A stretch of DNA of 64,000 bases. It comes from Escherichia coli O157:H7 (GTDB lineage Bacteria > Pseudomonadota > Gammaproteobacteria > Enterobacterales > Enterobacteriaceae). The notes under the pieces are model-generated. The model worked only from the letters and a program-made list of their open reading frames with translations. It did not search any database and had not been told where the DNA came from. Made by a program: the position numbers and the translations under genes. Below are positions 56,051-58,286 of this stretch, piece by piece (position 1 is the stretch's first letter; each line of letters starts with the position of its first letter). The stretch lies in NCBI RefSeq assembly GCF_013167455.1, contig NZ_CP038328.1; one strand, given 5' to 3'.

Positions 56051-57016
56051 TCATCCAACCCGCTGCTTATCATGCCGATAATTCACCCAGGCGTTGATAA
56101 TAAACGTCATCACCAGGATGCCAAACACCACGCCCAGCGAGACGGCGATTGGAATATGGTAGAAGTCGACAATCAGCATCTTGATACCGATAAACACCAG
56201 AATCACCGCCAGGCCATATTTGAGCATCGAGAAACGCTCTGCTACGCCCGCCAGCAGGAAATACATCGCACGCAGGCCGAGGATCGCAAACAGGTTTGAG
56301 GTCAGCACAATGAACGGGTCAGTGGTCACGGCGAAGATAGCCGGAATGCTATCCACGGCAAAAATCACGTCGCTCAATTCCACCAGAATCAGTACCAGCA
56401 TCAGCGGTGTGGCGTACAGCAATCCATTCTTACGCACAAAGAAATGCTCGTTGTCGATGGTGTCGGTCATGCGCAAATGACCGCGTAGCCAGCGCACCAG
56501 CGGCTTGTCGCCAATGCCTGATTCATCTTCATGGGCGAGCGCCATCTTCACGCCGGTAAACAGCAGGAAGGCACCGAAGATATACAGGATCCAGTCGAAC
56601 TGCGAAATCAGCCAGCTGCCAGTGAAGATCATGATGGTACGCAGAACAATCGCCCCGAGCACGCCATACACCAGCACGCGGCGTTGTAATGCCGCCGGAA
56701 CGGAGAAATAGCTGAACAACATCAGCCAGACAAAGACGTTATCGACCGCCAGCGACTTCTCAATCAGATAACCCGTGAGGAAGGCCAGCGCCTGTGGATC
56801 GGCAACGGCGCGACCTTCGGTTTGTACCAGATACCACCAGAAAGCAGCGTTAAACAGTAACGACAGCGTCACCCAGACCAGCGACCAGGCCGCAGCCTGT
56901 TTCATGGTCATGGCATGTGCCCCACGACGTCCCTGCAACAACAGGTCGATAGCCAGCATAATGGCGACAACAACAGCGAATCCGCCCCATAGCAACGGCG
57001 TGCCGACAGTATTCAT
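56051..57016 (-). CDS. alx: TerC-family inner-membrane protein Alx (putative Mn2+ exporter, alkaline-induced)
   Basis: 321-aa [39 protein letters not shown]... Confidence 0.9.
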
Positions 57017-57029
57017 AGAAGTTCCTTAC

Positions 57030-57265
57030 ACATAAAAAAAACGGCCAACGTCGGAAGACGTCAGCCGCTGCTTTTTATGCATAGACCTCGCCTTCCGGCA
57101 AGGTCTCACTTACAACAAAAAAGGAATACGTCTGCGTATTCCTTTCGGGTTGCCCGGTGACCGGATGTGGTTTTTCACACATCGTAATGACGATCGACCG
57201 GCAATGAAGTTACTCCCCTTTGCAGGTAACAAAGTATGACAGACCATTCAGTCAGTCAATGGTCT
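57030..57265 (-). ncRNA. sraF: alx 5' leader: yybP-ykoY-type (Mn2+ / pH-responsive) riboswitch element (SraF) with attenuator hairpins
   Basis: Minus strand contains aaaggggagtaacttcattgccggtcgatcgtcattacg, then hairpin aggaatacgcagacgtattcc + U6, then a second hairpin gacgtcttccgacgt + U8 about 20 nt before the alx ATG. Confidence 0.6.
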
Positions 57266-57299
57266 GTTACATACCTTTTACACTGTTTTACTTTGGCAA

Positions 57300-58286
57300 T
57301 TATAGTTTTACGCTATCTGCCGGAAAAATCACCCCAGTCTGGCGGCGGATCTCGGTCAGCAGTTTGGCTGTGATGCGACTGACCGCCAGCCCTGGATGAT
57401 CCACCAGATGCTCATCCACCAGGGTAGCGAACAGCTCTGCTTCGTAGAGCATGGTATTAATATGCTGCGGCTGGGTGAGATCCTGCATCTGGCTGCCACG
57501 CGGCACGAAGCACACTTTCTGGCATTCAGACAGTTTTTCAATCACCAGCGATCCCGCTTCGCCCTGAATCTCGCTTGCCAGGACAGAATCGCTGACCTTT
57601 GAGTGCTGCAAGGTGACGCTGAAATCACCGTAATCCATCACCACCACGCCGTGGGCATCTACACCACTTGCCAGTAAACTGGCGGTTGCCTGCACGCTTT
57701 TCGGCTCACCAAATAACGCTACCGCCGACGCCAGGCAGTAAAAGCCGATATCCATAATTGAACCGTTAGAGAATGCCGGATTAAAGGTGTTGGGATTCTC
57801 ACCGTCCAGGTAACGTTGATACCGCGAGGAATACTGGCAATAGTTGAAAAAAACTTTCCGCAGTTTGCCGACTTTCGGCAGCGCCTGGCGTAACAGATGA
57901 AAGTTAGGCAGGCTGGCCGTTTTAAATGCCTCAAACAGCACCACCTGATTTTCACGCGCGCAGGCAATGGCTGCATCCACTTCCGCCAGATTCGACGCCA
58001 GTGGTTTCTCACAAATCACATGAATTTTGTGGCTCAGGAAAAGTTGCGTCTGGGAAAAATGCAGGGCGTTCGGGCTGGCAATATACACCGCGTCGATAGC
58101 GTCACTTTCCGCCATTGCTTCCAGCGAAGTAAACAGATGCTCGACAGAAAACTCATTGGCGAAGTGCTGGGCCTGTTCAAGGCTGCGGGAATAAACGGCG
58201 GTTAACTTATATTTACCGCTTTCATGTGCGGCCTCCACGAACTGGTGAGTTATCCAGTTCGTACCAATCACGGCGAAACGTATCAT
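57300..58286 (-). CDS. ygjR: Gfo/Idh/MocA-family NAD(P)-dependent oxidoreductase
   Basis: MIRFAVIGTNWITHQFVEAAHESGKYKLTAVYSRSLEQAQHFANEF... (328 aa). Confidence 0.85.
   Translation of the reverse strand: MIRFAVIGTNWITHQFVEAAHESGKYKLTAVYSRSLEQAQHFANEFSVEHLFTSLEAMAESDAIDAVYIASPNALHFSQTQLFLSHKIHVICEKPLASNLAEVDAAIACARENQVVLFEAFKTASLPNFHLLRQALPKVGKLRKVFFNYCQYSSRYQRYLDGENPNTFNPAFSNGSIMDIGFYCLASAVALFGEPKSVQATASLLASGVDAHGVVVMDYGDFSVTLQHSKVSDSVLASEIQGEAGSLVIEKLSECQKVCFVPRGSQMQDLTQPQHINTMLYEAELFATLVDEHLVDHPGLAVSRITAKLLTEIRRQTGVIFPADSVKL

Follow-up and report, generated by a model that had tools for sequence, protein, structure and literature searches.

Anatomy, folding and covariation of the alx leader of Escherichia coli O157:H7, a yybP-ykoY-type Mn2+ riboswitch with a three-way junction

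The SraF or PRE element has been studied since 2001-2009, and reporters, chemical probing, smFRET, and crystallography have all been applied to it. In the literature cited throughout this report, termination at both of its sites, reporter responses to Mn2+ and pH, the phenotype of an A37U mutant, probing data, and a crystal structure are on record for the alx leader, and probing with Mn2+ and at different pH as well as transcriptional versus translational lacZ fusions of alx have been published. The aptamer is described there as a three-way junction with an L2 capping loop (PMC12153347, PMC12934788). That three-way junction, a terminator in helix P4, a P5/P6 pairing, and pairing of the ribosome-binding site (RBS) with L1 are all found in PMC12153347, while PMC12934788 reports Mn2+-stabilised docking by smFRET along with MD and crystal structure 9JGM. 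The riboswitch treated here is thus already known, and our finding is real but not new, since the alx leader is a well-studied Mn- and pH-responsive riboswitch with two terminators. Our own contribution is its sequence anatomy, its folds, and covariation for P3, the P4 base, P6, and P5/P6.

Within the window, a 64,000-nt stretch of E. coli O157:H7 DNA, the ygjR-alx intergenic region lies at 57017-57299 on the minus strand, beginning after the ygjR stop codon (57302..57300). By megablast it is 100% identical to E. coli O157:H7 strains, and the flanking genes were named from these matches, which bears out the original assignment of the locus as the alx leader. The region is found in 5419 of 5426 complete E. 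coli genomes. The E. coli K-12 alx riboswitch (PRE/SraF) is the same element at the same locus; the K-12 leader of the published work and the one here agree at 283 of 286 intergenic positions. The region here differs from K-12 by an A/G change in the promoter spacer, by C55 instead of A55 in the capping loop of P3.1, and by a U8 instead of a U7 tract at the second terminator, T2. The two agree in numbering, helices P1.1-P6, both termination sites, and the RBS:L1 pairing (PMC12153347, PMC9472077, PMC10197570, PMC12934788). The product of alx matches Pfam TerC (E = 1.3e-53) and is annotated in MG1655 as "Mn(2+) exporter Alx". Comparisons were made over a set of 80 Enterobacterales Alx loci, in 78 of which ygjR lies upstream of alx; 73 leaders were aligned, 74 were used to count T-runs at the first terminator (T1), and 70 entered the promoter comparison. 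We put a probability of about 0.93 on the reading that this segment is the leader of alx, PRE/SraF, which belongs to the yybP-ykoY Mn2+ riboswitches as a three-way-junction variant and controls Alx mainly at translation. Its features are as follows.

57226..57281, minus strand: hairpin between the ygjR stop codon and the alx +1, from its fold and pairing in orthologs
57231..57259, minus strand: alx sigma-70 promoter, -35 TTGACT (57259..57254), 17-nt spacer, -10 TACTTT (57236..57231), geometry read from the sequence
57202..57223, minus strand: 5' strand of the right leg, with the 5' sides of P1.1 (GCAAAGG), L1 (GGAGUA), and P1.2 (ACUU), and the L2 cap
57154..57201, minus strand: left leg P3, with P3.2 (10 bp, C29 bulged), the L3 loop, and the P3.1 hairpin, from the fold and covariation
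57112..57153, minus strand: P4 helix of the aptamer, which is also T1 (hairpin B), core stem 57146..57119, U6 57122..57117
57098..57111, minus strand: 3' strand of the right leg, with P1.2 AAGU (57111..57108), L1 GAGA (57107..57104), and the P1.1 "switch" CCUUGC (57103..57098)
57083..57106, minus strand: P5 of the OFF state, AGACCUUGCC/GGCGAGGUCU, from the fold, orthologs, and PMC12153347
57052..57097, minus strand: putative alternative P5/P6 helix of the ON state, nt 128-136 with 165-173 and nt 138-141 with 159-162, A137 bulged
57034..57069, minus strand: P6, which is also T2 (hairpin D), stem 57069..57040, UUCC loop, U8 57041..57034
57014..57027, minus strand: ribosome-binding region, Shine-Dalgarno (SD) AAGGA 57027..57023, spacer ACUUCU, ATG 57016..57014
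56051..57016, minus strand: alx coding sequence, the regulated gene, from the list of open reading frames; a TerC-family Mn2+ exporter

The start of transcription was placed at 57224 from the published residue numbers A11, U35, C36, A37, C58, C73/A74, and A137 (PMC12153347, PMC9472077), and with this +1 all seven fit the sequence exactly. The leader RNA is therefore 57224..57017 only. The whole intergenic region had been predicted to be structured, which is true, but the prediction joined this RNA to 57299..57225, which is untranscribed promoter DNA as far as alx is concerned. In orthologs the -35 TTGAC is kept in 55-65 of 70 promoters and the -10 TA(t/c)TTT in 42-69 of 70; the promoter may alternatively be read as an extended -10, TGtCATACT. 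Transcription ran from this same alx promoter in PMC9472077. A plus-strand promoter-like site at 57277..57306 was set aside as chance, being one match where 0.6 were expected.

The hairpin at 57226..57281 is likewise outside the alx leader RNA and overlaps the -35, spacer, and -10 of alx. It is built from an inner inverted repeat, ACAGACCAUU (57267..57258) with AAUGGUCUGU (57248..57239), and an outer pairing of an A-tract with a U-tract, GUAAAAGGUAUG with CAUACUUUGUUAC, and folds at -23 kcal/mol (z -3.7). Across the 70 orthologous promoters 66.9% of the cells of the inner repeat are paired, compared to 33-42% in slid controls, with several pair types at each position. It is probably the ygjR terminator. 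It is conserved and covarying, and it could link ygjR read-through to alx promoter activity; the excerpts of the main alx papers make no mention of such a coupling.

The entire leader folds at -97 kcal/mol (z = -9.7), a value equalled by none of 200 shuffles, and its minimum free energy (MFE) structure is the published OFF state. The aptamer spans about 127 nt, 57224-57098. Its 39-nt core, aaaggggagtaacttcattgccggtcgatcgtcattacg, is present at 57221..57183 as predicted. The idea that terminators follow an aptamer-like core did not hold in that form, as the aptamer comprises nt 1-127 and the first hairpin is its helix P4 (PMC12153347). In the right leg, the 5' side of L1 is GGAGUA at 57216..57211, in which A11 is 57214. 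GGGGAGTA occurs within 300 nt upstream of alx in 72 of the 80 loci and farther upstream in five more, and the L1 motif is present in 78 of 80. Alignment positions G4-T20 are invariant in the 73 leaders, as is the 3' strand of the leg, and P1.1 and P1.2 are 100% paired and never vary. Because P1.1, P1.2, and the RBS:L1 pairing are invariant or lack compensatory change, covariation is silent for or against the P1.1 switch helix. The L2 capping loop, following the description in PMC12934788, consists of C19-G23 closing A20, U21, and U22 and stands in for helix P2; these 5 nt are all that lies between P1.2 and P3, which leaves no room for a P2 helix.

The left leg does covary. P3.2 is 99% paired in orthologs, with 6 of its 10 pairs changed on both sides, and P3.1 is 92% paired, with 5 of 6 changed on both sides. 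Between them L3 forms a 7-nt asymmetric loop, UCAUUAC at 57190..57184, on the 5' side only. It carries the Mn-coordinating A37 (57188), a role shown by the A37U mutant (PMC12153347), and C36, A37, and A40 are invariant in the aligned leaders. The segment GAGACC...GGUCUAU was rejected as a candidate for P3/L3 and is P5. Two candidate leader peptides were also rejected: an open reading frame at 57075..57182 (35 aa) starts inside P3.1 with a start that varies (GATG, GGTG, GAAG) and lacks an SD, and one at 57110..57247 (45 aa) starts upstream of the transcription start site.

A terminator scan of the minus strand returned exactly two sites, T1 and T2, where shuffled sequences gave 0.7 +/- 0.7. Each is a stem-loop containing G+C followed by a U-run on the transcribed strand, the form of an intrinsic terminator. 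Both hairpins had been predicted as terminators, with U6 and U8 respectively, and both are genuine (PMC9472077, PMC10197570, PMC12153347). In single-round transcription the products of about 108 and 190 nt are chase-resistant RNAs (PMC9472077). T1 contains aggaatacgcagacgtattcc at 57143..57123 followed by T6 at 57122..57117, and the isolated P4/T1 segment folds at -19.4 kcal/mol (z -6.9). In vitro it terminates 46% of transcription at about nt 108 at pH 7.2 and 43% at pH 8.5, which makes it essentially signal-independent, and NusA raises termination at this site B (PMC9472077). The 3' strand of L1/P1.1 (GUAAGUGAGACCUUGC) comes 3' of this hairpin (PMC12153347). About 45% of polymerases halt at T1 in vitro, at about nt 108, whatever the pH and with the aptamer still incomplete; since termination there precedes completion of the aptamer and ignores pH, T1 may serve physiologically as a constitutive damper.

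The base of P4 is 99.5% paired in orthologs, with 3 of 5 pairs covarying. Orthologs keep the T1 hairpin in variable form; outside Escherichia the length of P4 lies anywhere between a 4-bp stub and more than 17 bp, and REP/ERIC-like insertions are tolerated. A T-run of at least 5 is found at T1 in only 10 of 74 leaders and is missing in the other 64, which keep the riboswitch; U6 occurs in three Escherichia sequences (the window, L004, and L005) and in L036 and L051. From this distribution we tentatively raise the possibility that the P4 U6 terminator is a recent addition, essentially only in Escherichia, on a helix of freely varying length. If true, about half of the transcripts in E. coli would be lost, ahead of aptamer completion, at an additional gate that is ligand-independent and NusA-sensitive and that would be missing from most alx riboswitches of Enterobacterales. 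A lineage restriction of the U6 tract is not mentioned in the excerpts of the main alx papers.

T2 belongs to the switch as part of the expression platform. The predicted hairpin, gacgtcttccgacgt at 57062..57048, makes up just the inside of a longer stem, CGGCUGACGUC/GACGUUGGCCG. T8 comes next, at 57041..57034, and the A-tract at 57082..57071 can lengthen the stem onto the U-run. Isolated P6/T2 folds at -20.4 kcal/mol (z -6.0). Over its 14 pairs P6 is 93.5% paired in orthologs (3 with double and 6 with single changes), and its U-run is in all 73 aligned leaders and near-universal in the sampled Enterobacterales. In vitro T2 terminates 13% at pH 7.2 and 10% at pH 8.5, at about nt 190 (PMC9472077). 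P5 takes up the 3' strand of L1/P1.1 when the aptamer is undocked (PMC12153347): nt 119-128 have two alternative partners, nt 2-8 (P1.1/L1) and nt 133-142 (P5). P5 folds in isolation at -17.7 kcal/mol (z -5.3) and is 91% paired in orthologs with no double changes; covariation is uninformative for this alternative because the strand is invariant.

The P5/P6 helix can coexist neither with P5 nor with the P6 terminator. Its pairing was derived by inspection of the sequence and then assessed by folding of the isolated segment and covariation. The segment folds exactly in the proposed pairing (-22 kcal/mol, z -5.0), and the pairing is 96.9% maintained in 73 leaders, compared to 34-59% in slid controls, with 3 pairs changing on both sides, including G130-C171 to A-U in 11 sequences. 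The bulged A137 described for the active conformer (PMC12153347) is consistent with this pairing, and the register given above would be its likely exact form. Next to P6 stands the SD AAGGA, adjoining the second hairpin as predicted, 6 nt before the ATG; the end of the U8 run is 17 nt before it. In the OFF-state MFE structure nt 198-200 pair with C16-U18 and nt 203-208 with G8-U13 of L1, in keeping with the "RBS base-pairing with a disrupted P1.1/L1" of PMC12153347. This pairing is 72-79% maintained in orthologs and shows no covariation because L1 is invariant. When the aptamer was forced closed in a thermodynamic fold, P6 was kept and GAGGUCU paired with the SD region, giving neither an open RBS nor P5/P6. 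Equilibrium folding alone thus fails to predict the open RBS, consistent with the published co-transcriptional, ensemble-shifting switch, and since switching is reported to happen during transcription, the forced-aptamer fold was rejected as a representation of the ON state. Probing in vitro found that the expression platform changes no more than modestly with Mn (PMC12153347).

These elements can be assembled into a proposed mechanism. Transcription starts at 57224 from the TTGACT-17-TACTTT promoter and gives a right leg, P1.1-L1-P1.2, capped by the 3-nt L2, and a left leg, P3.2-L3-P3.1, that stacks on P4. At low Mn2+ (OFF), L1/P1.1 would be open with its 3' strand held in P5, and the P6 terminator hairpin would form; the freed 5' strand of L1 (GGGAGU..CUU) would pair with the SD and spacer and so block the RBS. 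In the ON state, which cytoplasmic alkalinisation would favour since it raises Mn2+ and sensitises the aptamer, Mn2+ would be bound between L1 and L3 with the involvement of A37. P1.1 would then be closed, which bars P5, and nt 128-141 would pair with nt 159-173 (P5/P6), removing the P6 terminator and leaving the RBS single-stranded. T2, with P6 and U8, halts about 10-13% at about nt 190 and yields the roughly 190-nt SraF RNA. The main regulated step of alx is translation: translational reporters respond 68-fold and transcriptional reporters 1.5-fold, and Mn2+ induces the translational ones (PMC10197570). A37U abolishes the 68-fold response (PMC12153347).

Membership in the yybP-ykoY family does not show up as an Rfam match. 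RF00080 (Rfam 15) gave no match at its gathering score in a 14 kb scan, none at E <= 10 in leader stretches of 501 and 226 nt, and none in 20 orthologous alx loci. Permissive Rfam scans of the leader returned only chance-level miRNA/sRNA families (10-20 bits, E 0.1-10), and the 20 orthologous loci only REP/ERIC-type families (naRNA4, CssrA, ES036) from repeats inserted in or near the leader. The original prediction had proposed the lack of a significant Rfam hit as grounds for refutation. No such hit exists, yet the crystallised mntP aptamer itself scores only 41.6 bits with RF00080, under the gathering score of 45, and the model requires P2, its consensus line stopping after P4 with the P1 pairs unmarked. 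Since the model encodes a four-way junction and leaves mntP below threshold, the absence of a match does not refute membership and is unfit as a refutation for divergent architectures. With default filters, a covariance model built from 35 alx-type aptamers had no match in the mntP locus; once the filters were switched off, its best match was the mntP aptamer (L003 964-1074), non-significant at 6.5 bits (E 0.17) and covering the right leg only, which does not amount to proof of homology. The family features themselves are largely in place: L1 (GGAGUA / GAGA), flanked by P1.1 and P1.2 and equal to mntP and the RF00080 consensus GGGGAGUAG; P3 with an asymmetric L3 bearing a Mn-coordinating adenosine; alternative pairing of the P1.1 3' strand with the expression platform; and a location upstream of a Mn2+ homeostasis/export gene, alx. 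The four-way junction with P2 is absent. The alx L3 differs from the common ACAUACU and has a sequence found in 3% of Rfam members (PMC12934788). We conclude that alx is a divergent three-way-junction member of the family, and the prediction of a yybP-ykoY-type Mn2+ riboswitch for which pH is relevant is confirmed by the L1/L3 features and the published Mn2+/pH response.

The want of any RF00080 match, of a P2 helix, and of a reciprocal covariance score better than E 0.17 might suggest an unrelated structured leader that contains GGGGAGUA by chance. We consider this extremely unlikely, given that the control mntP aptamer also falls under the gathering score, that L1 equals mntP on both strands, that a 7-nt asymmetric L3 with the same xCAUxxx core sits in a covarying P3, and that the downstream gene is a Mn exporter; the published Mn2+ response, L3 chimera, and crystal structures of the alx aptamer (PMC12153347, PMC12934788) already refute it. 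The original prediction spoke of layered, sequential attenuators, and T1 and T2 do both terminate, but they are not equivalent, T1 being signal-independent and T2 part of the switch, and translation dominates. The stronger claim that control rests mainly on two transcription attenuators in series, regulated by ligand or pH, with translation secondary, is unlikely. It draws on the reality of both terminators (terminator scan; PMC9472077), on the mutual exclusion of T2 and the ON-state helix, and on transcriptional reporters, whose output rises on deletion of PRE and is lifted 1.5-fold by alkaline pH, an effect ascribed to hairpin D (PMC10197570). That 1.5-fold is small beside the 68-fold of the translational reporter (PMC10197570), and between pH 7.2 and 8.5 termination hardly moves, from 46% to 43% at T1 and from 13% to 10% at T2 (PMC9472077). 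The position of T1 upstream of the aptamer 3' strand (PMC12153347) means that termination there precedes formation of the binding pocket, and 64 of 74 leaders with the riboswitch lack its U-tract; for T1, serial regulated attenuation is already largely refuted.

The original PRE model, a ligand-free pH sensor in which alkaline pH lengthens RNA polymerase (RNAP) pauses and steers folding with Mn2+ incidental, is very improbable. Although alx came to notice through its induction by alkali, and PRE was described as a riboswitch that responds to pH (summarised in PMC9472077), alkaline pH gives shorter, not longer, pauses (PMC9472077). Regulation in vivo needs the native E. coli RNAP, but the pH response is abolished by A37U, a Mn-coordination mutant (PMC12153347). 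Cytoplasmic Mn2+ rises on alkalinisation (PMC10197570), and although pH sensitivity comes from the L2 loop and the alx-type L3, pH modulates Mn2+ sensitivity and does not act alone (PMC12934788). We give equally little credence to a trans-acting sRNA role for the terminated leader, in which the conserved P6 terminator would exist to make the approximately 190-nt SraF or the 108-nt RNA. The earliest detection of SraF was as a discrete small RNA (cited in PMC9472077), every aligned leader keeps P6 with its U-run, and in L077 a P6-like hairpin with a U-run seems to be retained, although the search for aptamer motifs there gave none. Against this, the excerpts of the alx literature report no target or phenotype, and the cis switch, with its P5/P6 covariation, fully explains the conservation of P6. 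A RyhB-type pairing with sraF-alx tested negative (bioRxiv 10.1101/2024.09.30.615890), which addresses a different question.

The cis-acting, mainly translational Mn2+ riboswitch is thus the reading we retain. The locus has little discovery value, as the element has already been dissected in detail, and serves instead as a calibration case in which a first-pass reader correctly identified a real riboswitch from raw sequence. A small refinement is that P6 and P5/P6 are kept and covary in nearly all sampled Enterobacterales, while the terminator inside the aptamer appears lineage-specific.

Among described relatives, mntP (yebN) has an L1 identical to that of alx on both strands (GGAGUA / GAGA), flanked by P1.1 and P1.2, and the GGAGUA...GAGACC signature of alx aligns to its aptamer. 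Its P3.2 likewise has 10 bp, its asymmetric L3 has 7 nt with CAU at the core, and P3.1 and P4 are hairpins; like alx it is a translational ON switch that controls a Mn2+ exporter (PMC12153347). Unlike alx, mntP has a P2 helix, and with it a four-way junction, and an L3 of ACAUACU; its P4 is short and without a U-tract, its leader has no terminators, and it is not pH-responsive (PMC12153347, PMC12934788). In alx these places are taken by a three-way junction with an L2 cap, an L3 of UCAUUAC, a terminator in P4, and a second in the platform. Lactococcus lactis yoaB, Xanthomonas oryzae, and Bacillus subtilis yybP/ykoY share with alx the docking of L1 with L3 and a P1.1 switch that competes with a downstream hairpin. 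The alternation of the alx P6 terminator with P5/P6 resembles the terminator/antiterminator platforms of transcriptional yybP-ykoY riboswitches, but those have a four-way junction and work chiefly through antitermination, whereas alx acts mainly on translation.

The minus-strand region 57299..57017 fills the gap between the ORF ending at 57300 and the ORF whose ATG lies at 57016. YgjR is a Gfo/Idh/MocA oxidoreductase and Alx a TerC-family protein (Pfam E = 1.3e-53). A 501-nt query matched E. coli O157:H7 chromosomes with 100% identity; of 5426 complete E. coli genomes, 5419 contain this stretch, as a single copy located between ygjR and alx. The original prediction of an alx leader of the yybP-ykoY type was correct, and the element is already known: it is the published alx riboswitch, alias pH-responsive element (PRE) or SraF RNA, of the yybP-ykoY Mn2+ riboswitch family (PMC12153347, PMC9472077, PMC10197570, PMC12934788). 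The +1 was fixed by matching published residues A11, U35, C36, A37, C58, C73/A74, and A137 to the sequence. All published residue numbers fit only a start at window position 57224, and since the sequence 5' of this start is the promoter, the leader RNA comprises 57224..57017 only. Leader and promoter differ from those of K-12 MG1655 at 3 positions.

Features of the alx leader region (nt, numbering from +1; five-digit numbers, window positions)
57259..57231 (-), alx promoter TTGACT-17-TACTTT, upstream of +1, conserved across genera
nt 1-23, P1.1 5' strand, L1 5' side GGAGUA, P1.2 5' strand, and small L2 cap
nt 24-71, P3, consisting of P3.2, the 7-nt asymmetric L3 loop UCAUUAC with A37, and P3.1
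nt 72-113, P4
nt 114-127, 3' strands of P1.2, L1 (GAGA), and P1.1
nt 119-142, P5, expression platform
nt 156-185 plus U-run, P6, the second terminator (T2), expression platform
A-tract able to extend P6 onto the U-run, expression platform
57027..57023 (-), SD AAGGA, with the start codon part of the expression platform
57221..57183 (-), aptamer core as originally predicted
57143..57123 (-), hairpin 1 as originally predicted, then U6 at 57122..57117
57062..57048 (-), inner part of hairpin 2 as originally predicted
57034-57041, strain difference, T2 tract U8 (K-12, U7)
57170, strain difference, nt 55 C (K-12, A), P3.1 capping loop
57252, strain difference, A (K-12, G), promoter spacer, promoter hairpin loop

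Every motif quoted in the prediction was found in the minus-strand sequence, and the true stem of hairpin 2 is longer, 57069..57040, running into U8 (57041..57034). A consensus scan of the minus strand returned exactly these two terminator-like sites, versus 0.7 +/- 0.7 in shuffles. The folding energy of the leader is -97 kcal/mol (z = -9.7), and in element-wise folding each element is much more stable than its shuffles. The unconstrained MFE structure matches the published OFF (low Mn2+) state, with P5 and P6 formed and L1 nt 8-13 and 16-18 paired with nt 203-208 and 198-200 of the SD and spacer. The aptamer and both hairpins are thus present, but hairpin 1 is not downstream of the aptamer as had been proposed: P4 occupies nt 72-113, inside the aptamer, so the supposed first terminator is P4 rather than an element 3' of it. 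The first terminator has been located in P4, within the alx aptamer (PMC12153347).

An Alx protein-anchored search yielded 80 loci from many Enterobacterales genera, with ygjR upstream of alx in 78 and the L1 motif upstream of alx in 78 (within 300 nt in 72). Inserted repeats place L1 farther upstream in 5 loci, and L026 (Atlantibacter sp. RC6) retains it despite an internal deletion. In alignment A1 of 73 leader sequences, P3.2 was paired in 99% of cells (6/10 pairs changed on both sides), P3.1 in 92% (5/6), the P4 base in 99.5% (3/5), and P6 in 93.5% (3/14, and one-sided changes in another 6). Pairing was complete (100% of cells) in P1.1 and P1.2, but both are invariant, making covariation uninformative for them. 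No pairs changed on both sides in P5 (91% paired) or L1:RBS (72-79%).

In L026:1090-1203, a deletion between the direct repeats CTTGCCGG (in E. coli numbering, nt 17-27 and nt 123-130) has removed P3, P4, and the 3' strand of the aptamer; it leaves L1 joined directly to the P5 loop, so the aptamer can no longer form. No L1, L3, or switch strand was detectable upstream of alx in Rouxiella aceris (L077:1000-1203), where a P6-like hairpin plus U-run (GCGGCTAATGTCTTTTGACGTTAGCCGTTTTTTT) is still present right before the start codon.

The length of P4 varies among orthologous leaders, from a 4-bp stub to over 17 bp. Only 10/74 leaders have a T-run of at least 5 after P4, and U6 follows it in the three Escherichia sequences (the window, L004, and L005) and two others. 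Judged by leader comparison, the intra-aptamer terminator formed by P4 and U6 (T1) appears to be lineage-specific. E. albertii (L006:820-1100) carries a REP-type insertion in P4, flanked by a duplicated P4 hairpin, with Rfam naRNA4/ES036 matches; the repeat inserted in P4 of L015 matches Rfam CssrA and V_AS5 below threshold, and L038 has a similar insertion in its P4. A repeat of ~130 nt lies between the P6 terminator and SD in L028 and L048, and ~26 nt are inserted between the T2 U-run and SD in Shimwellia (L067:1150-1200). Phytobacter (L017) and UBA3516 (L056) have 40-60 nt insertions in the P3.1 capping loop. Large insertions are evidently tolerated in P4 and in the spacer that follows the terminator.

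An alternative ON (Mn2+-bound) helix was derived from the sequence, pairing nt 128-136 with 165-173 and nt 138-141 with 159-162 and leaving A137 bulged. The isolated P5/P6 segment folds exactly as this helix (-22 kcal/mol, z -5.0). Pairing of the helix over 73 leaders is 96.9%, versus 34-59% for slid controls; both partners have changed in 3 pairs, among them G130-C171, which is A-U in 11 sequences. The helix agrees with published work, in which A137 is bulged when the conformer is active and paired when it is inactive. This pairing and covariation, a by-product of the analysis that supports the switch helix, indicate that P6 belongs to a terminator/anti-terminator pair doubling as sequestor/anti-sequestor.

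The published model is the best-supported mechanism. In it, Mn2+ bound between L1 and L3 (A37) closes P1.1, which blocks P5, lets P5/P6 form, removes P6, and frees the RBS; without Mn2+, P5 and P6 form and the L1 5' strand masks the RBS. The response is lost in the A37U mutant (PMC12153347). At alkaline pH, cytoplasmic Mn2+ rises and the aptamer becomes more sensitive, an effect that acts via L2 and L3 (PMC10197570, PMC12934788). Translation changes 68-fold at alkaline pH and transcription 1.5-fold (PMC10197570), in support of translation being the step mainly regulated. In vitro, 46% and 43% of complexes terminate at ~nt 108 at pH 7.2 and 8.5, versus 13% and 10% at ~nt 190, and NusA raises termination at ~nt 108 (PMC9472077). 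These figures suggest that T1 is a largely constitutive damper, located before the pocket can form. T2 is coupled to the switch. The expectation of layered transcriptional and translational control survives in spirit for T2, fails for T1, and overstated transcription.

The stretch from the ygjR stop codon to the alx +1 contains a hairpin at 57226-57281 (-) that overlaps the -35, spacer, and -10 of the alx promoter. Its inner 10-bp inverted repeat is ACAGACCATT/AATGGTCTGT, its outer pairing joins GTAAAAGGTATG with CATACTTTGTTAC, and it folds at -23 kcal/mol (z -3.7). Across 70 orthologous promoters, 66.9% of the cells of this inner repeat are paired (slid controls, 33-42%), with several pair types at each position. 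The hairpin is probably the terminator of ygjR, with part of its sequence also serving the alx promoter; the available excerpts of the alx riboswitch literature (PMC12153347, PMC9472077, PMC10197570, PMC12934788) make no mention of it. On the plus strand, 57277-57306 holds a promoter-like TTTACA-18-TATAGT (10/12 matches) antisense into the ygjR 3' end, 1 match versus 0.6 expected by chance.

The Rfam scan proposed as a check came back empty. RF00080, the yybP-ykoY model, gave no match, whether at the gathering threshold or with E <= 10, in the alx leader or in 20 orthologous loci, and neither a PGAP-annotated O157:H7 genome nor MG1655 carries a riboswitch annotation in the ygjR-alx interval. 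This is a false negative: the crystallised E. coli mntP aptamer (L003:962-1058), the positive control, scored 41.6 bits where the gathering score is 45, so the test is insensitive, and gathering-threshold annotation would miss both E. coli Mn2+ riboswitches. The RF00080 consensus contains a P2 hairpin, which alx lacks, and the consensus line of the Rfam 15 model (177 positions in the model) marks no P1 base pairs and stops after P4. Among Rfam sequences the alx-type L3 is limited to Bacillales (PMC12934788), implying that enterobacterial alx leaders are absent from that set, consistent with the RF00080 result.

A reciprocal covariance model built from 35 alx-type aptamers placed its top match exactly on the mntP aptamer, at only 6.5 bits (E 0.17) with the right leg alone aligned. 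Alx L1 is identical to that of mntP on both strands. The alx leader has the L3 architecture with its invariant A, the switch strand, and a downstream Mn-exporter gene, and lacks the four-way junction and a family-level covariance-model score. Together these features indicate that alx is a divergent three-way-junction member of the yybP-ykoY family, as the literature also describes it.
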